Of a stretch of DNA of 64,000 nucleotides, positions 848-63,455 are shown one piece after another. Each line of letters opens with the position of its first letter. The stretch's first letter is position 1. The DNA comes from Candidatus Yanofskybacteria bacterium RIFCSPHIGHO2_01_FULL_44_24 (GTDB lineage Bacteria; Patescibacteriota; Minisyncoccia; 2-02-FULL-40-12; GWA2-44-9): the NCBI GenBank assembly GCA_001794215.1, contig MGJK01000012.1, positions 80,818 to 144,817 on the forward strand, given 5' to 3'. The notes under the pieces were generated by a model. That model was given only the letters and a program-made list of their open reading frames with translations, was not told the origin of the DNA and ran no database searches. The translations under genes were made by a program, and so were the position numbers.

Positions 848-1174
848 ATGAAAATTGATATGTATGCAAAAAATATGAGTTTAGACGGGCCGCTTAGGGT
901 CTTTATCGAAGATAGAATAGGCGGATTAGGAAAGTTTATCGGTAAAGGGCCGGTTGAGGCCCGGGTTGAGATAGGGCTTCCGTCAAAGCATCATCAGTCC
1001 GGCAAGATTTATTATGCCGAGGTTAATTTGAATATGGGCGGGAAACTGTTGCGGGCCACCTGTCAGCATGAAGATCTCCGCAACGCTATCGTTGATGTTA
1101 AGAATGAGCTGCAGAGACAGATCAAAAAGTTCAAAGACAAGAGGAAAGACTTATCAAGAACGCCCCATAAATGA
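848..1174 (+). CDS. hpf: Ribosome hibernation promoting factor / RaiA (short form)
   Basis: 108 aa. MKIDMYAKNMSL...VEIG...GKIYYAEVNLNMGG...LRNAIVDVKNELQRQIKKFKDK matches the HPF/YfiA sigma-54 modulation protein fold pattern. Confidence 0.8.
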   Translation: MKIDMYAKNMSLDGPLRVFIEDRIGGLGKFIGKGPVEARVEIGLPSKHHQSGKIYYAEVNLNMGGKLLRATCQHEDLRNAIVDVKNELQRQIKKFKDKRKDLSRTPHK

Positions 1175-3942
1175 TGGGGCTGTTTAATATTCGGACCATG
1201 TCGATATTAGGTAAAATATTCGGTGATGCTAATGAGCGATACATCAAATCGCTTCAGCCGACAGTCGATCGGATCAATGAACTCGAAAAAGAATACGAGA
1301 AGCTTTCAGACGAAGAGCTAAAAGCCGAAAGCCTAAAGTTTAAAGCCAGATTGGCCGAAGGAGAAACTCTTGATGACATTCTTCCTAAAGCGTTTACGGC
1401 GGTTCGGGAAGCTTCAAAAAGAACTTTGGGCCAGAGGCATTTCGATGTTCAGTTAATGGGAGGGATCTCTTTGCATCGGGGGAAGATAGCCGAGATGCGC
1501 ACCGGAGAAGGAAAGACCCTTGTAGCGACATTACCGGCGTATCTTAACGCTCTTACCGGAAAAGGAGTCCATTTGGTCACGGTTAATGATTATTTGGCTC
1601 GTCGTGATGGAGCCTGGATGGGTCAGATTTATAATGCCCTTGGCTTATCGGTAGGATGTATCAACCACGACTCGAGCTATCTCTATGACGAAAGCCATAC
1701 AAAAAATCCTAAATCCAAAATCCTAAATCCTAAATCCAAAACAGCTTCCAATTCAGAGAGTTCGGATTTAGATATTAGTGCTTTGGATTTGGACCACGAG
1801 CGTGATACGCTTGGGTCCTTCCATGTCGTTCATGAATTTTTAAGGCCGGTATCAAGACGCGAAGCCTATAGCGCGGATATTACTTACGGGACAAACAATG
1901 AGTACGGTTTTGATTATCTGAGAGATAATATGGTTCACAGTTCGGAGCAGATGGTTCAGCGCCAGGGAGGACATAATTTTGCCATTGTCGATGAAGTGGA
2001 CTCCATTTTAATTGATGAAGCCCGGACTCCTTTGATTATTTCCGCTCCCGATACAGATTCCACGAAATTGTACGAGACTTTTTCCAGGGTGGTGCCGAGA
2101 TTGGTTGAAAATCAGGATTATAACGTCGATGAAAAGTTAAAGGCAGTTTCCATAACCGAAAGCGGGATCGAAAAGGTTGAAAAGATGTTAAACCTCTCAA
2201 ATATCTATGAGGAAGGCGGCGTTCGCTATGTGCATCATTTAGAGCAAGCCCTAAAGGCCAATATATTATTTAAGCGTGACAAGGATTATGTGGTAAAGGA
2301 CGGTGAAATTATCATTGTCGACGAATTCACCGGACGGTTAATGCCCGGCCGGAGGTGGTCAGAGGGTCTTCATCAGGCTGTCGAAGCCAAAGAAGGCGTA
2401 AGCGTTCAGAAAGAATCCCGCACATTGGCTACTATCACATTTCAGAATTATTTTCGTTTATATAAAAAGCTTGGAGGTATGACCGGAACCGGGCAGACGT
2501 CGGCCGAGGAATTTCATAAAGTTTACAACATCGATGTGGTGACCATCCCGACCAATAAGCCGATGATGCGTCAGGACCATCCGGATATGATTTACAAGAA
2601 TGAAGTCGGAAAGTTCCGGGCTATTGTCAATGAAATTAAAGCGAGAAACCAAAAAGGCCAGCCTGTTCTTGTCGGCACCGTTTCCATAGATAAAAATGAA
2701 ACTCTTTCCATGATGTTAAGGCGGGAAGGAATTGAGCATAATATTCTGAATGCAAAGAATCACGAGAAAGAGGCAGAAATTATCGCTCAGGCCGGGCGAG
2801 CCGGAGGAGTAACCGTCGCTACAAACATGGCCGGCCGGGGAGTGGACATAATTTTAGGAGGCAATCCTTCTGATCCGGAAGAAGCTAAAAGGGTGCGTGA
2901 TCTTGGCGGTCTTCATGTCATTGGAACGGAGCGTCATGAGGCTCGAAGAATTGACGATCAGCTCAGGGGCAGGGCCGGCAGGCAGGGTGATCCCGGATCT
3001 TCCCAATTTTTCATTTCCACTGAAGACGAAGTCGCAAGGATATTCGGCGGAGACAGGATGAAGAACATCATGGAGACCCTGGGGGTGGGGGAGGATGATG
3101 TCATCCAGAATAGTTTTATTTCTCGGGCCATACAGCAGGCTCAGTCGAAAATTGAGGGGCACAATTTTGATATCAGAAAATATGTTCTTGAATACGATGA
3201 TGTGATGAATAAGCATCGGGAGACGATTTATGGGTTAAGGAAGAGCGTCTTGTTTTCGGAAGATAATCGGGAAGTTGTCAGGGGATATCTGCGCAATCAG
3301 ATCAATAACTTAGTGGATTTTCACTTGGCAGAATCACAGGTCAACTCTGATAACGGAATAAATGTTAAGGAAATAGCCGAGTCCGTTAAGTCGATGGCCG
3401 GAATTGAACTTTCTTCACAGCTAACTGAAGTCGTTGAAGAGAATGATCCTGAAAAAATAAAGGACCTGATAAATGAACAACTCGAAGCCGCGTACAATAC
3501 GAAAGAAAAAGAAGTCGGAGCCGATAATATGAGGCGCCTTGAGAAGCTGGTTCTCTTAAGAACCGCGGACGAACTATGGGTTGATCATATTGATGCCATG
3601 GAATATTTGCGGGACTCGGTAAGATTGAGAGCCTACGGTCAGCGCGATCCGTTAGTGGAGTATAAGATTGAAGGCCAGAAGATGTTTGAACAACTCACTC
3701 AATCGTTAGAGTCACAGGTTGCCAACCTCATATTTAAAGTCGGATTTATCGAGAAGCCTCGTGAGGTTAAGGTGGAAGAAAGAAGGCCCAATATTCTGAA
3801 TGATGAATTAAGAAGCAAGAATAATGATTCGGATAAACAAAATCATAGTTCTAAGACCCAATCTCATAATTCATCTTTAGGCCGGAATGATCCTTGTTTC
3901 TGTGGATCGGGGAAGAAGTATAAGAAATGCCATGGTAAGTAA
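1171..3942 (+). CDS. secA: Preprotein translocase ATPase SecA, with an about 60-aa low-complexity insertion and a C-terminal SEC-C zinc motif
   Basis: 923 aa. Canonical SecA motifs are present (GKIAEMRTGEGKTLVATLPAYLNAL, DEVDSILIDEARTPLIIS, the C-terminal CFCGSGKKYKKCHGK). The insertion KNPKSKILNPKSK...SALDLDHERDTL lies between the LSVGCINHD and AYSADITYGTNNEYGFDYLRDNM blocks. Confidence 0.95.
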   Translation: MMGLFNIRTMSILGKIFGDANERYIKSLQPTVDRINELEKEYEKLSDEELKAESLKFKARLAEGETLDDILPKAFTAVREASKRTLGQRHFDVQLMGGISLHRGKIAEMRTGEGKTLVATLPAYLNALTGKGVHLVTVNDYLARRDGAWMGQIYNALGLSVGCINHDSSYLYDESHTKNPKSKILNPKSKTASNSESSDLDISALDLDHERDTLGSFHVVHEFLRPVSRREAYSADITYGTNNEYGFDYLRDNMVHSSEQMVQRQGGHNFAIVDEVDSILIDEARTPLIISAPDTDSTKLYETFSRVVPRLVENQDYNVDEKLKAVSITESGIEKVEKMLNLSNIYEEGGVRYVHHLEQALKANILFKRDKDYVVKDGEIIIVDEFTGRLMPGRRWSEGLHQAVEAKEGVSVQKESRTLATITFQNYFRLYKKLGGMTGTGQTSAEEFHKVYNIDVVTIPTNKPMMRQDHPDMIYKNEVGKFRAIVNEIKARNQKGQPVLVGTVSIDKNETLSMMLRREGIEHNILNAKNHEKEAEIIAQAGRAGGVTVATNMAGRGVDIILGGNPSDPEEAKRVRDLGGLHVIGTERHEARRIDDQLRGRAGRQGDPGSSQFFISTEDEVARIFGGDRMKNIMETLGVGEDDVIQNSFISRAIQQAQSKIEGHNFDIRKYVLEYDDVMNKHRETIYGLRKSVLFSEDNREVVRGYLRNQINNLVDFHLAESQVNSDNGINVKEIAESVKSMAGIELSSQLTEVVEENDPEKIKDLINEQLEAAYNTKEKEVGADNMRRLEKLVLLRTADELWVDHIDAMEYLRDSVRLRAYGQRDPLVEYKIEGQKMFEQLTQSLESQVANLIFKVGFIEKPREVKVEERRPNILNDELRSKNNDSDKQNHSSKTQSHNSSLGRNDPCFCGSGKKYKKCHGK

Positions 3943-6876: not shown

Positions 6877-6897
6877 AGGCTAAGAAAAAATTATCTT

Positions 6898-7110
6898 GAG
6901 GGCACGGTGTAAAAGTCACTCAGCCTTGGCTTATTCGAGGTACGCCATAAAGACGCTTTGCTTCAACCTATTCAGGGCACGGCATAGATTTTTGCTAAAA
7001 TCTTGCCTTTTACTCCCGCCAGTCGCGGTCCGTAAATCCCTTCATAGGTTGAAGCCTCGCTTAGGGTTTTAAATAAAGGTCAGCGCAAATCCTCTCATAA
7101 GCCAAGGCTT
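6898..7110. repeat. Modular intergenic repeat element, locus A (members of a dispersed family; see loci B-D)
   Basis: Segment 6971-7040 is 69/70 identical to the reverse complement of 48426-48495. Segment 6900-6940 is 39/41 identical to the reverse complement of 48526-48566. A ccgc-cagtc-gcgg hairpin is followed by tccgtaaatccc. Confidence 0.8.
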
Positions 7111-7183
7111 CGTTATTATTTTCCGCAAGTCCCTCTAAATAGCTCTTCTTTGCTATATAATAGTTGATATCAAGCCAATAAAT

Positions 7184-17744: not shown

Positions 17745-17821
17745 CCCGAGCCCTCGTTGTTAAAGAATCAATCTACCAGACTATATCAGATCATTCATGA
17801 TTGTCCAGAGATCCGGCTTAC

Positions 17822-18200
17822 GTTAGGGAGGGCTCGATCTATAGGGCACGGCATAAATTTCTGGTGAAATTTTGCCTTTTGCTCGCCTCGGCCAGTCTGC
17901 GCAAATCCCTATAAATCAGGCCCTCCCTAACGATCAGGTAGCCAAATCAATTATTATTTTAGGGATTTACGCAAAACTACATAGCGAGCCCCCTTGTCTA
18001 TCTGAGGCATTTGAGACCCCGCCCCTTGCATGGTTCTGAAGGGGCGGGGCGAACATAGCTGAGTCCCGTCGTTGGCGGGACGGAGGCGTGCTGAAGATAG
18101 ATAGGGGGTGAGTAAAATTTATGGCATGCCTCGAATAAGCCAAGGCTGAGAGGCTTTTATGTCGTGCTCGAAAGAGACTTGCTTATCGGCTTATTAGCAT
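17822..18200. repeat. Modular intergenic repeat element, locus B (about 108-nt unit bounded by 11-bp perfect inverted repeats)
   Basis: ttagggagggc (17823-17833) and gccctccctaa (17920-17930) flank a segment containing tatagggcacggcataaa and gcgcaaatccct. The locus also holds a GC-only 9-bp hairpin ccccgcccc/ggggcgggg (18017-18049), gcatttgagacccc, and cctcgaataagccaaggctgag (18129-18150). Confidence 0.75.
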
Positions 18201-29564: not shown

Positions 29565-29663
29565 TATATCCGCCCTTAGCCCCGGCTTCCTGTCGGCTTC
29601 GGTAGGAAATCAAATATATCCGCCCTTAGCCCTGCCTGCCGGCAGGCAGGTCAGTTGGTAGAG
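29565..29663 (+). repeat. Two partial 5' copies of the tRNA-Lys gene; the second is interrupted by a 20-bp perfect palindrome
   Basis: tatatccgcccttagc occurs at 29565-29580, at 29615-29630, and again at the intact tRNA (29913-29928). The second copy reads ccgcccttagc + cctgcctgccggcaggcagg + tcagttggtagag, which is tRNA positions 1-11, the inserted palindrome, then positions 12-24. Confidence 0.8.
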
Positions 29664-29669
29664 ATCAAT

Positions 29670-29909
29670 ATGTATTTTGTATATATTTTAAAAAGCGGCA
29701 AAGACGGCAATTTGTACATAGGCCTTACTAATAACATAGAGAGAAGGTTGAACGAGCATAATCGGGGCAGAAATTTATCTACAAAACACAGGGTGCCGTT
29801 TAAGCTTTTGTATCAGGAGCGGGTAGGTAGTAGAATTGAAGCAAGAAAGCGAGAAAAGTATTTCAAATCAGGAACTGGTCGGGAATGGATCAAAAGTAGC
29901 TTAAGATAA
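29670..29909 (+). CDS. GIY-YIG nuclease superfamily protein (small, UPF0213-like)
   Basis: MYFVYILKSGKDGNLYIGLTNNIERRLNEHNRG... is a canonical GIY-YIG module. The track ORF begins at TTG 29655, inside the duplicated tRNA D-arm segment. Confidence 0.85.
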   Translation: MYFVYILKSGKDGNLYIGLTNNIERRLNEHNRGRNLSTKHRVPFKLLYQERVGSRIEARKREKYFKSGTGREWIKSSLR

Positions 29910-29918
29910 TTTGTATAT

Positions 29919-29991
29919 CCGCCCTTAGCTCAGTTGGTAGAGCAGCTCCCTTTTAAGGAGACGGTCGTAGGTTCGACTCCTACAGGGCGGA
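29919..29991 (+). tRNA. tRNA-Lys (anticodon UUU)
   Basis: Hand-folded: 7-bp acceptor stem ccgccct/agggcgg, D arm gctc-agttggta-gagc, anticodon loop cTTTTaa, T arm gtagg-ttcgact-cctac, discriminator A, and no encoded CCA. Very similar to the E. coli tRNA-Lys(UUU) backbone. Confidence 0.85.
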
Positions 29992-30595
29992 CAATATAAA
30001 AAGTCAGCATTTTTTGGAGTGTTGGCAATTCGGGAATATGCCTTTTTGTATTGTATTTCCTGAATCTCTTTGTTTTGGAACCAAACGTTCCAAAGTAGTG
30101 AATTTATCATTTGATACCTTTTTGAATCTTCGCCATTTAAAAAGTCATTTTTGGCGTTTTTAGCTTGTAAAAATACTTCTTTTGTCCGTTCCAAAGTAGA
30201 TAAGGCGGTTTCCGGATTATCCTTTTTAGTCCGGCTTAACTGATTTTCTAATTCAACCCTCTGATTATTGAGTTCCCTTATCTTATCGTCATATAACTCA
30301 ATTCTAAGGCTTCCAGAGGCCATAGCATCAGCCAGGCGGGATTCTCTTTCGTCTATCAGTTTCAATTCTTTTTGAATACCGGAAATGATAGTTTCAGACC
30401 TATCACTTGCCCCTATCTTCTGTTTGGCCGCCTCATACATGATTTCAATGGCCTCATCATCAAAAGCCAGATCGCCAAGCTTATCGGCAATCATCTTTGT
30501 AATAATTTCTTCCCGCATATATGCCTTGCCCTGTTCGCAAGAACCCTTTCCATTTGTGCAGTAATAATACCTATAACCCTTCTGCCACAGAGTGC
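29992..30595 (-). pseudogene. C-terminal fragment of a large serine recombinase (zinc-ribbon remnant plus coiled-coil region); N-terminal catalytic domain absent
   Basis: The minus-strand frame upstream of the track ORF start reads STLWQKGYRYYYCTNGKGSCEQGKAY-MREEIITKMIADKL... This is the YYxC...C half of the recombinase zinc beta-ribbon, followed by about 180 aa of coiled-coil. An in-frame stop lies just upstream, so there is no resolvase domain. The track ORF 29925-30518 runs antisense through the tRNA, so its last roughly 20 codons are artefactual. Confidence 0.45.
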
Positions 30596-47740: not shown

Positions 47741-47863
47741 TTAAGCGCTAAAATACCGTAATAGAATAACAAGTTTATTCTATTTACGCAATATATTGAC
47801 ACTTGTCAAATCCCGGTGTATTATTTGAAGGCCTTAGGAAAGTTCTTTCGGGCGGAGGGAGCA

Positions 47864-48007
47864 ATGGAATATCTACTGATCGTCGGAGGATTGACTGTCG
47901 CAATTGCGGGTTGTCTGCCGAGCGTCAGGAAAAGATCCCTCGGCACCCTACTCAGGGTTTCGGGTGGATTCATGTTCGGATGGGGTATCGGCAGGTTATT
48001 CTTATAA
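47864..48007 (+). CDS. Small hydrophobic peptide (47 aa), paralog a
   Basis: RBS ggaggga. MEYLLIVGGLTVAIAGCLPSVRKRSLGTLLRVSGGFMFGWGIGRLFL. Followed by the hairpin terminator agcggcgtttcgccgct+tttt at 48011-48031. Confidence 0.35.
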   Translation: MEYLLIVGGLTVAIAGCLPSVRKRSLGTLLRVSGGFMFGWGIGRLFL

Positions 48008-48103
48008 TTTAGCGGCGTTTCGCCGCTTTTTGTATTTCTGGCGCTTGACAGGATAGTAGTAAAAAGCTTATTATGCAAAAGCACCATTAGGGCGGGAGAA
48101 TTA

Positions 48104-48250
48104 TGTGATTGTATCGGCTTCATTGTTGATTGTTTGTGGTGTTTATTGGACGGTGCGTGGTGTTAAAAGTAATAGCTTGTGGTCATTTCCGATGCTTATG
48201 CTCGGCGGATATTGTTTAGGGTTTGGCATCAGGCTCCTGTTCTTCTCTTA
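48104..48250 (+). CDS. Small hydrophobic peptide (48 aa), paralog b, hand-called
   Basis: GTG start after a gggagaa RBS. Reads ...VKSNSLWSFPMLMLGGYCLGFGIRLLFFS, sharing the C-terminal GGxxxG[WF]GI[GR][RL]LF motif with paralog a. Followed by the hairpin agcgggatttatcccgct+ttt at 48251-48271. Confidence 0.3.
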
Positions 48251-48361
48251 AGCGGGATTTATCCCGCTTTTCGTTTTTCCGGAGCCTTGACTATTTATGT
48301 TCAGATTACTCAAGCGAAACCTTAACCCAACGAAGAGATTTACAAAAAGCTATATGGCGAA

Positions 48362-48612
48362 GCCCCTTGTCATTCTGCAGCATTTGAGACCCCGAAACCG
48401 CTCAAGCGAGGCCATAATCCATAAAGGGATTTACGGACCGCGACTGGCGGGAGTAAAAGGCAAGATTTTAGTAAAAATCTATGCCGTGCCCTGAATGGGT
48501 TATGGCCGAGCGTTTTTATGGTCTGCCTCGAATAAGCCAAGGCTGAGTAACTTTTACGCCGTGCCCTGAATGGGTTGAAGTAGAGCGTCTTTATGCCGTA
48601 CCCTGATTAACC
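48362..48612. repeat. Modular intergenic repeat element, locus C
   Basis: Contains gcatttgagacccc, the segment 48426-48495 (the inverted copy of 6971-7040), cctcgaataagccaaggctgag (48526-48547), and three degenerate copies of t[at]tgccgtgccctgaatgggtt at about 48480, 48555 and 48593. Confidence 0.8.
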
Positions 48613-50643: not shown

Positions 50644-51015
50644 TATATTTGACTAATTGGTTGGCTACTGTTACTATATTTTAACCATACTTCGATTGAT
50701 AAAAGGGCGACGGATGAGAATAGTTCAGAACCAGTTCTTCCGTATTTTCTTTAGCGTTTTATCCGGTCTGTTCGTTAGATATTTTTTGGGATTTGGTTGG
50801 GGTCTGGTGGCTGCGTTAATAGTCGTTATGTTTCTCAACGTCCTTGCCGGGATTGACCGGGCTCGAGGCCGCTCTTAGCGGCCTTTTTTATTTCTTTTTT
50901 CAGTGGTAAGCTTAGATAGAAGTACCCGCCTATGCCCTTCAGGCTTCGGCGAGGTGCTGAATTTTCTAACAACTCGGCTTCGCAAGCATTCGCTTGCCTC
51001 GTTGAGGAAATTCGC

Positions 51016-51630: not shown

Positions 51631-51639
51631 GCGCTCGGC

Positions 51640-52055
51640 TTTCAATCTACTAACGGCACGCCATAAAATGTTACTCGGGTTTAACCAATGAAGGGCACGA
51701 TGTAAATTCCTGCCTGCCGGCAGGCAGGTCTACTGAAATTTCATCTTTTACTCGCTCCAGTCGAGCTCCGTAAATCCCTTCATTGGCTAAACCCTCGCCC
51801 TGAGCTTGGTCAGCCTGCACAAATCCCTTAAGAGATTAAAAGCCTCGCTTGAAAAGCTCGGGGTCTCAAATGCTTCAGATGGACAAGGGGCTTCACCTTA
51901 GTTTTTTCGTAAATCCCTTCATGGGTTAAGGATTCGCTTGATGCTTGAACAAACAACCTGCGCAAAGATATTGTGGCTCTGGTTTTCGAACGGCCCTGAT
52001 GGGTCTTGACAAAAATTTTGGTTAGGTGTATTGTATCGTAAATCCATGAAGCAAC
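51640..52055. repeat. Modular intergenic repeat element, locus D
   Basis: Contains ggcacgccataaaatg, the palindrome cctgcctgccggcaggcagg (51709-51728), the hairpin gctc-cagtc-gagc then tccgtaaatccc (51754-51778), and three copies of the cgtaaatccc(t)tcatNGGNTAA word. Also has ggggtctcaaatgc, the reverse complement of gcatttgagacccc. Confidence 0.75.
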
Positions 52056-55570: not shown

Positions 55571-56374
55571 ATGCTATTATTTTGTTTTCGCATCACTATG
55601 GCTGAAATATCCATCAAGGCGGAACCTATTTTTCATATCGGTTCTTTTGTTTTCACCAATTCCTACCTTTTATCCGTAATCGTGGTAGGAATTTTTGTTT
55701 GTTTATCTTTGTGGTTGAAAGATCATTTGAAAACCATTCCCGGCAAGCTTCAAAGCGTATTCGAGCTTTTAACTGAAGAAATTTTCAAGATGATGGATAC
55801 CGTATTGGGCTCTCGGAGCCTTTCTGAAAAGTATTTCCCGATCGTAACTACGGTTTTCCTTTTTGTATTACTGTCAAACTGGCTGGGCCTCCTCCCCGGA
55901 GCGGGTTCCCTGGGTATTCTGCATGAGATCCAGCATGAGGGAGAGTACCGGACTATCCTGGTGCCTTTTCTGAGGGCTCCTTCAGCCGACTTGAATTTTA
56001 CCGTTGCCCTTGCCCTGGCAGTTATGTTTGCTATTAACTTCTTTGGCTTGACCGCCCTGGGCATCAAGCGCTATGCCGGAAAATTCTTCAACTTTAAAAA
56101 CCCTATTTATACTTTTGTCGGCCTGCTTGAATTAATTTCAGAATTTGTTAAAATAATCTCGTTTTCGTTTCGTTTATTCGGTAATATATTTGCAGGCGAG
56201 GTACTGCTTATCATCATAGGATTCCTTGGCCCTTATTTTTTGCCGCTACCGTTCCTTTTTTTGGAAGTATTTGTAGGGTTTATTCAGGCGTTTATTTTCG
56301 CTATGCTCACGCTGGTATTCATAGGAATGTCCGTGAGTCATCACCCTGACACCCACCAAGCAGATATTTCTTAG
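55571..56374 (+). CDS. atpB: F0F1 ATP synthase subunit a
   Basis: LSNWLGLLPG ... FRLFGNIFAGEVLL, including the conserved Arg in the RLFGN motif. The likely start is the internal MAEISIK. Confidence 0.9.
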   Translation: MLLFCFRITMAEISIKAEPIFHIGSFVFTNSYLLSVIVVGIFVCLSLWLKDHLKTIPGKLQSVFELLTEEIFKMMDTVLGSRSLSEKYFPIVTTVFLFVLLSNWLGLLPGAGSLGILHEIQHEGEYRTILVPFLRAPSADLNFTVALALAVMFAINFFGLTALGIKRYAGKFFNFKNPIYTFVGLLELISEFVKIISFSFRLFGNIFAGEVLLIIIGFLGPYFLPLPFLFLEVFVGFIQAFIFAMLTLVFIGMSVSHHPDTHQADIS

Positions 56375-56510
56375 CAGCTGTCGCATAGACGCGAATTTAT
56401 TAAGTTCTTGCCAATAGCCTGATGAGTCCCGTCTGAACGCGGGAATAAAAGAAGCAACTGCTTGGTGGGTGTGAGGGATCGCGAAGAGGTCGAGCAACAT
56501 TAAATAACTA

Positions 56511-59768: not shown

Positions 59769-60737
59769 ATGTCAATAATTGAAGTCAAAAATAGAATAAA
59801 AGCCGTTAAGAATATCGGACAAATCACGAAAGCGATGGAAGTTGTGGCGGCGACGAAGATGAGAAAGAGCCAGGAAGTGGCTCTGCATTCGCGTCCCTAC
59901 GCTTTTAAGGCGCTTTATTTGCTTTCGACCTTAGCTAAGCACGCAGAAGTTAAGACAAAACTGATGGAGGTTCGCCATATAAAAAAGACTCTCTTGGTTA
60001 TCGTTACCTCCGACAGGGGACTTGCCGGTTCTTTTAATTCCCAGGTTTTCAGGATGGCCGATTCCTTTTTGAAATCATATCAGGATATCGGAAATGACGG
60101 ACTGAAGGTTATCGCGGTTGGCAAGAAGGCTATTTCTTATGCCGGGAAAAAGAAACTCAACATGGTTGACGGTTTTTCGGGATTCGGAGATTTTGTAGAG
60201 CCGGCAGAGACCTATCATTTGTCGGATAAAATCACCTCAGCTTTTCTTTCGGGCGAGTGGGACAGAGTTATAACCATTTCGACTCATTTCCGTACGACTC
60301 TCAAGCAGGAGGTTTTAATGAGGCAGATTTTACCGGTTGATTTGGAAAAAATTCAGAAAACAATCGACGAAATTATTCCAGAATCAGGCCGATTTGCCGG
60401 ATTGAGAGTAGAAAGTAGAAAGTTGAAGGTAGGAAATTCAGATTCAGAGCCACTTTCCACGCCCCACCTTTCACACTCTCCGGATTACATTTTTGAACCA
60501 AGTCCGGCGGAGTTAATTGAATCCCTCGTCGATCACTTGGTTAAAATGGAGGTTTATCATCTTGTTTTAGAGGCCAATGCCTCGGAACATTCGGCGCGGA
60601 TGGTGGCAATGAAAACAGCCTCCGATAATGCCCAAGAACTTTCCGAAAATCTAAATTTAGAGTATAATAAGGCGCGTCAGGCTGGAATCACGAAAGAGTT
60701 AATTGAGATCACGTCTGCAGTGAATACACTGCAGTAA
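59769..60737 (+). CDS. atpG: F0F1 ATP synthase subunit gamma (with an internal insertion of about 30 aa)
   Basis: IKAVKNIGQITKAMEVVAATKMRKSQ at the N-terminus and ITKELIEITSAVNTLQ at the C-terminus. The extra segment GNSDSEPLSTPHLSHSPDY lies in the middle. Confidence 0.9.
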   Translation: MSIIEVKNRIKAVKNIGQITKAMEVVAATKMRKSQEVALHSRPYAFKALYLLSTLAKHAEVKTKLMEVRHIKKTLLVIVTSDRGLAGSFNSQVFRMADSFLKSYQDIGNDGLKVIAVGKKAISYAGKKKLNMVDGFSGFGDFVEPAETYHLSDKITSAFLSGEWDRVITISTHFRTTLKQEVLMRQILPVDLEKIQKTIDEIIPESGRFAGLRVESRKLKVGNSDSEPLSTPHLSHSPDYIFEPSPAELIESLVDHLVKMEVYHLVLEANASEHSARMVAMKTASDNAQELSENLNLEYNKARQAGITKELIEITSAVNTLQ

Positions 60738-60744
60738 ATCCGAA

Positions 60745-62214
<1,470 letters not shown>

Positions 62215-63382: not shown

Positions 63383-63428
63383 TGATGAGGCCGAGCTTAG
63401 CTCGGCGTTTTCTTTTCGGGGCGGTTGA

Positions 63429-63455
63429 TTAGCACTCTTGACTTGGGAGTGCTAA
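63429..63455 (+). promoter_or_regulatory. CIRCE operator (HrcA binding site)
   Basis: ttagcactc-N9-gagtgctaa is a perfect match to the CIRCE consensus TTAGCACTC-N9-GAGTGCTAA. It lies about 150 nt upstream of hrcA. Confidence 0.85.

Follow-up and report, generated by a model that had tools for sequence, protein, structure and literature searches.

Several described systems come close to the repeat considered here. The ERIC (or IRU) sequences of enterobacteria are imperfect palindromes of ~127 bp. REPs are simple hairpins of 20–40 nt with a conserved GTAG head, and are associated with a RAYT gene, which encodes a Y1 HUH transposase. A classical MITE is bounded by conserved terminal inverted repeats and by target-site duplications, and derives from a parental insertion sequence. 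CPR bacteria (Patescibacteria) have small, compact genomes, the non-coding part of which has hardly been explored. TIGR arrays consist of alternating 8–12-nt edge and loop repeats with 9-nt spacers, or of box C/D stem-loops, with an adjacent Tas (Nop-domain) gene (PMC12045711).

The present locus lies in a 64-kb window, that is, the whole stretch of DNA that was analysed. An earlier note had drawn attention to a 4-bp stem, which reads CCGC/GCGG in two loci (A and C) and GCTC/GAGC in a third (locus D), with an identical CAGTC loop and identical flanks, and with two of the four pairs swapped (C:G to G:C, and G:C to T:A). Exact pattern matching confirmed these observations. The pattern TTACTC-NNNN-CAGTC-NNNN-TCCGTAAATCCC (TTACTCNNNNCAGTCNNNNTCCGTAAATCCC) was found exactly three times in the window, at 7010–7040 (+), 48426–48456 (−), and 51748–51778 (+), with no match expected, and was found in none of 100 dinucleotide-preserving shuffles of the window. 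The swap, spotted by eye, had flagged a real structure. The hairpin is "stem b", the apical stem of a folded intergenic repeat of 110–130 nt, which belongs to a previously undescribed family and is most likely a mobile palindromic element, not a stand-alone RNA gene. Of the functional RNA hairpin proposed in the note, the conserved base pairing was borne out, but the hairpin is one arm of a three-way junction within the repeat, rather than an independent unit. A literature search on this sequence, on MITEs of Patescibacteria, and on Yanofskybacteria, found no description of the element.

On the strand read in the earlier note (the GGGCACG strand), the 66-nt core consists of GGG, the junction CAC, hairpin a, C, hairpin b, T, and CCC. 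In hairpin a, a bulged T separates a 4-bp stem from a 7-bp stem, which is closed by the loop TGCT; hairpin b is composed of TTTAC, TC, one strand of the 4-bp stem b, a loop (CAGTC, CGTC, or CAGCC), the other strand of stem b, TCC, and GTAAA. The core stands on a basal helix (P1) of 15–29 bp, which starts with a conserved two-by-two pyrimidine mismatch, and the sequence of which varies among copies with its complementarity kept. In loci A, C, and D, the unit is enclosed by one to three outer "shells", each of which runs from a 5′ arm and the first 14 nt of a core (GGCACGnnnTAAA), through the inner unit, to a core end (the last 10–20 nt, ..GCGCAAATCC or CCGTAAATCCC) and a 3′ arm complementary to the 5′ one. 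Nested units were found at loci L142, L149, and L168, as well as at loci A and D of the window. A search with the full covariance model (see below), with filters off, revealed four family copies in the window, all of them intergenic, at 84–105 bits, whereas the next-best match scored 12.9 bits. Their features are as follows:

6896–7135, + strand: whole array of locus A, with the P1 arms of the inner element at 6960–6974 and 7041–7055.
6911–6940 with 7091–7120, + strand: pairing arms of the two shells of locus A that enclose the inner element.
6975–7040, + strand: core of locus A, 66 nt, with CCGC at 7016–7019, the loop at 7020–7024, and GCGG at 7025–7028; 104.8 bits.
17821–17932, + strand: locus B, a complete divergent copy with its core at 17844–17909; 88.9 bits.
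17821–17843 and 17910–17932, + strand: the 23-bp P1 arms of locus B.
17961–18180, − strand: shell fragments and a GGGGTCTCAAATGC module beside locus B, in the orientation opposite to it.
48308–48610, − strand: whole array of locus C, downstream of uvrB, with three tandem units of ~37 nt (conserved 5′ end and 5′ arm); the order is tandem units, core, 3′ arm, GGGGTCTCAAATGC module, and solo 3′ end with 3′ arm.
48426–48491, − strand: core of locus C, with CCGC at 48450–48447, the loop at 48446–48442, and GCGG at 48441–48438; 99.6 bits.
51631–51966, + strand: whole array of locus D, which begins immediately 3′ of the ruvA stop codon.
51631–51654, + strand: 5′ arm of the outer shell of locus D, with the conserved 5′ end GGCACGCCATAAAA at 51655–51668.
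51677–51692, + strand: 5′ arm of basal helix P1 of locus D, GGGTTTAACCAATGAA, pairing with 51779–51794.
51693–51778, + strand: core of locus D, GGGCACG...CCGTAAATCCC, a three-way junction with hairpins a and b, 86 nt; 84.2 bits.
51754–51766, + strand: hypervariable stem b (4 bp) at the apex of the locus D core, with GCTC at 51754–51757, the loop CAGTC at 51758–51762, and GAGC at 51763–51766.
51779–51794, + strand: 3′ arm of basal helix P1 of locus D, TTCATTGGCTAAACCC.
~51808–51827, + strand: remnant GGTCAGCCTGCACAAATCCC on the 3′ side of the outer shell of locus D, with the 3′ arm at 51828–51852.
51908–51941, + strand: solo conserved 3′ end and 3′ arm in the array of locus D, with a 3′-end remnant at ~51956–51966.

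The region of locus A folds at −85 kcal/mol (z = −7.1). In locus B, TTTGC...GCAAA replaces TTTAC...GTAAA, and stem b is rearranged. The three tandem degenerate copies of cgtaaatccc(t)tcatNGGNTAA, which the earlier note had described in locus D, were recovered in part: those at 51769–51790 and 51908–51929 fit, and the third, at ~51818–51841 (GCACAAATCCCTTAAGAGATTAA), is degenerate. They are not arranged head-to-tail, but lie 50–90 nt apart and represent the 3′ halves of nested shells. Short tandem repeats of the type AAATCC(T/G)AAAT were also seen at 1690–1748, inside the long ORF 1171–3942, and at 60736–60800; the word AAATCC is common to these repeats and to the conserved 3′ end of the core. 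A module, GGGGTCTCAAATGC..GGGGCTTC (GGGGTCTCAAATGCTKCAGAWGGACAAGGGGCTTC), occurs at 48353–48395 (−), ~51858–51900 (+), and 17990–18030 (−), always beside repeat arrays, and its copies are 85–88% alike. Adjoining locus C, on the strand opposite to ORF 47821–48123, a strong promoter-like site (TTGACA-18-TATTAT, 11/12) is followed ~180 nt later by a terminator-like hairpin at 48250–48269, and this stretch, 48045–48269 (+), may give rise to a small transcript.

The core of locus D is 86 nt long because its hairpin a bears a 20-nt palindromic insertion in the loop region, at 51709–51728. This palindrome, CCTGCCTGCCGGCAGGCAGG, occurs twice in the window and might represent a very small palindromic insertion in its own right; the other copy, at 29631–29650, interrupts the second tRNA-Lys fragment, with TTAGC on one side and TCAGTTGG on the other. 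The tRNA-Lys 5′ end (with upstream TATAT) is partially copied at 29565–29660 and 29919–29992, ~300 nt before the real tRNA-Lys gene, and a small ORF with a GIY-YIG-like motif (GNLYIGLTNNIERRLNEHN) lies at ~29690–29905, between the partial copies and the gene. The arrangement resembles that of a mobile cassette by which the tRNA end was duplicated. Two further features were observed elsewhere in the window. The intergenic sequence TTAGCACTC-TTGACTTGG-GAGTGCTAA at 63427–63453, which follows a hairpin at ~63388–63408, matches the consensus of the CIRCE/HrcA heat-shock operator perfectly. At 56344–56477, a 29-bp inverted repeat (86% complementary) surrounds 76 nt containing CCTGATGAGTCCCG...CGGGAAT; the CCTGATGAGTCCCG segment is reminiscent of the hammerhead CUGAUGA box, and no Rfam family matched it, even at E ≤ 10.

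The family was searched for with a loose pattern in one genome per species, and with a strict pattern in metagenomes. The loose scan returned mostly chance matches in unrelated phyla, and only the loci of Yanofskybacteria and Paceibacterota were real (Yanofskybacteria RIFCSPLOWO2_01_FULL_39_28, another Yanofskybacteria MAG, and a Paceibacterota MAG); the strict scan returned 53 loci, mostly from groundwater. A covariance model built from 18 copies gave 97 matches, 69 of them distinct and mostly at 83–107 bits, in the window, the Yanofskybacteria loci, and the groundwater metagenome loci. In 737 kb of unrelated and viral loci, nothing exceeded 25 bits (best 24.6 bits), and nine pattern matches in viral contigs contained no family member. 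The E-values of the custom model are rough, and a gap of ~60 bits separates members from non-members. Rfam 15, run over the whole window at the gathering threshold, recognized tRNA-Lys only and no family matching the repeat, and at E ≤ 10 it gave only chance-level matches to locus A (12–16 bits). The family was found in a small clade of groundwater Candidatus Yanofskybacteria/Paceibacterota.

Standard pairs fill 97% of the cells of the 28-pair structure across the 69 distinct sequences, compared with 79% in shuffles, and 20 of the 28 pairs show compensatory changes. The covariation score was 0.485, compared with 0.163 for shuffled alignments (none of 500 reached 0.485), and fell to 0.126 or less when the partners were slid by one to three columns. 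In stem b, all four pairs covary (CG/GC/UA/AU), and 98.5% of the cells are paired. This stem was found in 24 sequence versions (including CCGC, GGCC, GGTT, GCTC, AGCT, GGCT, CCAC, CCTC, CTGC, GCCC, GCGC, ACTT, and AATC), which are freely combined with the different forms of hairpin a and the classes of arms, and the claim of stem covariation made from three loci therefore holds in the larger family. The alignment was fitted to the covariance model, which favours pairing; the stems, however, are ungapped and anchored by invariant flanks, and the finding that stem positions do not vary without compensation therefore stands. Together, the data indicate that selection acts on the pairing of a molecule in single-stranded form.

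Folding probably takes place on the strand complementary to GGGCACG. With the copies being kin and the counts not independent, the basal helices on the GGGCACG strand contain 783 Watson–Crick pairs, 34 A·C, 8 G·U, and 7 other mismatches, and the core helices contain 28 A·C compared with 12 G·U. An A·C mismatch on one strand corresponds to a G·U pair on the complement. The excess of A·C over G·U has the same sign in copies that are sense (12:1) and antisense (3:1) to the neighbouring genes. A mutational bias was rejected as its source, since the sign does not flip with gene orientation, and C-to-T deamination of the sense strand, or of the G-rich or leading strand, would predict the opposite. 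The complementary strand folds better by 8.2 kcal/mol in 67 of the 69 copies, and there the conserved pyrimidine mismatches become tandem G·A pairs, which are a common RNA motif. A K-turn or box C/D reading of these G·A loops was discarded: K-turns have a 3-nt-bulge geometry, and the loops are symmetric (2x2 or 3x2) and, on inspection, lack box C/D sequences. The complement was taken as the selected fold because of the mismatch asymmetry, its independence of context, and the folding energy; the folding single strand could be ssDNA during mobilisation, or RNA.

The arms fall into three classes, according to their junction-proximal sequence:

Class I: CTTTTTC-GGG / CCC-TCAAAAG.
Class II: CCYATTCA-GGG / CCC-TTCATRGG, with the ends CGCTCGG.. 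/ ..CCTCGCT; window copies A, C, and D.
Class III: ..AGAGTTGATTTCTG-GGGG / CCCC-ATAAATCAACTCT..

In the class I basal helix (19 copies), two conserved pyrimidine–pyrimidine mismatches are followed by ~20 positions that are 84–100% Watson–Crick paired, with all four pair types occurring at nearly every position, and pairing collapses past position 22–23. Arm identity between copies is 37%, compared with 28% in shuffles, and the arms are therefore homologous but nearly saturated. Within one subfamily, arms are shared between copies at different, non-orthologous sites (L108:1588 with L157:1410, and window locus D with L139), indicating that the arms travel with the core. These observations led to the rejection of the idea that each copy has unique arms, with the core inserting into pre-existing palindromes or making an inverted target duplication, as residual homology and subfamilies are evident, the same arms recur at different sites, and the lone empty site (L181) has no palindrome. 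Arms acting as guides to other genomic sites were likewise rejected, since in 0.65 Mb they match only themselves, the partner arm, and sister copies. Adjacent pairs are convergent in all 12 cases, and usually combine one class I and one class III unit; only some of these composites are bounded by a 10-bp inverted repeat, GTGCTAATYA/TAATTAGCAC.

All copies lie between ORFs, and their neighbours are unrelated housekeeping genes (uvrB, ruvA, dCMP deaminase, dprA, yebC, ruvC, and tyrS). On crude ORF calls, the GGGCACG strand is sense in 27 and antisense in 10 of the co-directional spacers, where a copy lies at a shorter distance from the stop codon upstream (median ~46 nt) than from the following start (~200 nt). 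The GGGCACG strand is the G-rich strand in 30 of the 47 copies with a clear local GC skew, and this 30:17 split led us to reject a strict replication-strand orientation of the kind seen in IS200/IS605.

Comparison with four relatives, in which RuvA is 74–81% identical and the synteny of ftsW, S20, uvrB, and ruvA is kept, revealed no copy in 71 kb. The uvrB–S20 spacer is 30 nt in one relative, compared with ~900 nt, including locus C, in the window. All four relatives differ from the window downstream of ruvA, where the window has locus D; in three of the four, ruvA abuts or nearly abuts femAB. Between aligned flanking genes, the spacer measures 358 nt with two copies in L168, and 17 nt in L181, and a class III unit that is present in L108 is absent from L157 at the same junction, with clean ends and no duplication. 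The genomes in these presence/absence comparisons are ~20–25% divergent, so insertion and deletion are indistinguishable at such sites. The cores are 80–93% identical between species whose coding DNA is 73–78% identical. A look-up of the exact RuvA protein for strain polymorphism returned only near-identical strains with the same spacing, and placed the window in a Candidatus Yanofskybacteria genome (MGKL01000003.1 / LCJR01000032.1). In the NCBI assembly MGKL01, the divergent uvrB–ruvA spacer is 41 nt shorter than in the window (~50644–50931) and in the other near-identical contigs (L172 vs. L171). A different long palindrome, with an internal hairpin, occupies the post-ruvA spacer of a family-free relative (L183, 10600–10830), and such long palindromes between genes may be widespread in the clade.

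On balance, we consider it somewhat probable that the family consists of interspersed, hairpin-forming intergenic repeats that spread as mobile DNA of the MITE, REP, or ERIC type, because the copies have unrelated housekeeping neighbours, occur in either orientation, are missing from the same sites in four relatives, and show site presence/absence. Judging from this distribution, the family would spread in the manner of MITEs, REP/BIMEs, or ERICs, moved by a mobilising enzyme. Selection would keep every helix paired because the single-stranded form must fold, and the strand to fold would be the complement of the GGGCACG strand, with the conserved mismatches as tandem G·A pairs. Where copies are transcribed, their long, near-perfect helices would presumably form stable stem-loops within the intergenic RNA. 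Neither a transposase nor any other gene for mobilisation adjoins a copy among the enclosed and flanking genes in ~0.65 Mb of family-bearing sequence, and the unassigned ORFs beside the window loci have no Pfam match. The junctions of L108, L118, and L168, and the one at which L108 and L157 differ, showed no direct repeat that could be a target-site duplication. As for terminal inverted repeats, the arms are inverted repeats that differ between copies, and the 10-bp pair mentioned above bounds some class I and class III composites only.

A structured non-coding RNA family is a possible, though less favoured, explanation. The element would then display a three-way junction, to which a protein or ligand binds, on a helix whose sequence is arbitrary. 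It would act in cis as a 3′-end, processing, or stability element, or as small RNAs with promoters of their own, and its copies would have arisen by duplication, not by selfish mobility. The conserved centre with variable arms is the reverse of the classical MITE arrangement and matches what is expected of such an RNA: the apical core is conserved, including the unpaired bases of the junction and loops, the stems vary with compensation, and the length of the basal helix is tightly set at ~20 bp. The number of compensated stem variants implies long-term selection on pairing, for which a cellular function could also account. Also in keeping with an RNA are the tandem G·A pairs formed by the conserved internal loops on the better-folding strand, the wobble asymmetry that is intrinsic to the element strand, the greater conservation of the core than of coding DNA between species, and the position of co-directional copies close to the upstream stop codon. 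That neither terminal repeats, nor target duplications, nor a transposase were seen would suit a function as RNA or as ssDNA. However, the copies show no consistent gene association and use both orientations, no U-tract follows the helix, no promoter-like site occurs at a fixed position, and the family is absent from the same sites in close relatives. G·U pairs are rare on either strand, and Rfam has no match. The 27:10 orientation bias runs in the direction opposite to the one that a role of the better-folding strand in read-through mRNA would predict. The nesting, the truncated shells, and the decaying arms in copies of the same subfamily are typical of selfish repeats.

A more specific reading, which we put forward only tentatively and hold to be doubtful, is that of more than selfish DNA: a new class of folded nucleic-acid module specific to these CPR bacteria, in which the conserved three-way-junction core on a ~20-bp arbitrary helix with tandem G·A pairs is recognised by a dedicated protein. 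This protein could be a nuclease or recombinase that is specific for structure and works on ssDNA, or a factor that binds or processes RNA, in either case on the complementary strand. If so, stem b would be a deliberately variable, always-paired 4-bp element.

The earlier note had offered, as its other option, a dyad-symmetric protein site that tolerates symmetric changes. Such a double-stranded DNA site for a dimeric protein (an operator, or a recombination or partition site) is now highly improbable. The helices are nearly pure Watson–Crick with very few wobble pairs, as a duplex site would have them, and several versions of stem b are self-complementary tetranucleotides (GGCC, GCGC, and AGCT). 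A duplex site, however, does not require its variable positions to covary, as most pairs of the fold do; the conserved loops TGCT and CAGTC, the junction CAC, and the 3′ end TCCGTAAATCCC are asymmetric; conserved pyrimidine–pyrimidine mismatches interrupt the dyad at fixed places; and both the mismatches, with A·C far exceeding G·U, and the folding energy are strand-asymmetric.

A guide-RNA array, TIGR-Tas or CRISPR-like, was prompted by the ~37-nt tandem units of loci A, C, and D, and can hardly be entertained: units of conserved 5′ end and arm do recur with a ~37-nt period in loci A and C, and TIGR systems do exist in CPR bacteria (PMC12045711), but the "variable" segments pair with each other as arms of nested helices and match just themselves and sister copies in 0.65 Mb, box C/D motifs are missing, the units are dispersed among housekeeping genes, and a scan of 20 neighbouring proteins for a Nop domain gave no match. 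An intrinsic terminator was rejected, with no terminator-like site at locus A and no T-run after the basal helix on either strand of the listed copies; a riboswitch or gene-specific cis-regulator was rejected on the unrelated neighbours and the use of both orientations, and known ribozymes were considered and rejected as well.

The mobile palindromic repeat favoured here takes up 110–400 nt between genes, at a density of about one copy per 16 kb of the window, and ~45 base pairs are kept through dozens of compensatory variants, pointing to maintenance by a mobilisation machinery or by a cellular factor. The family provides a covariation data set for a branched fold, a strain-level marker of genome dynamics in groundwater Yanofskybacteria, and a concrete target in the search for the protein that recognises it.

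Among known systems, the repeat resembles ERIC/IRU in being an interspersed, intergenic, imperfect palindrome of ~120 nt with a conserved central part, found in either orientation, with longer forms that arise by internal insertions, and with long stem-loops when transcribed. It differs from ERIC/IRU in that there is no sequence similarity, the host phylum is another, two covarying hairpins meet in a three-way junction at the centre, the arms are highly divergent between copies, and nesting is systematic. With REPs, BIMEs, and REPINs, it shares mosaic hairpins in alternating orientations, often as inverted pairs, a folded single strand as the presumed substrate, and the lack of target-site duplications and long terminal repeats. 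Unlike a REP, the unit is ~110–130 nt long, with a 66-nt branched core on a helix of 15–29 bp, although convergent doublets do occur; the ~0.65 Mb of family-bearing sequence showed no RAYT-like gene. Like the Correia/NEMIS, RUP, and BOX MITEs, it is non-coding, high-copy, intergenic, and patchy, and forms long hairpins of the RNase-processable kind, but, in contrast to classical MITEs, its ends vary and its centre is conserved, and neither a duplication nor a parental element was found. TIGR arrays (Faure et al. 2025, PMC12045711) likewise occur in CPR bacteria, and combine variable palindromic segments with short conserved motifs; the present repeat has no box C/D and no Tas gene nearby, is dispersed, has a much larger conserved core, and its variable parts pair with each other rather than act as spacers. 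Because it combines a branched conserved centre, a ~20-bp helix, and compensated variants, without terminal repeats, target duplications, or a transposase, the family is at least a new architectural variant among palindromic repeats.
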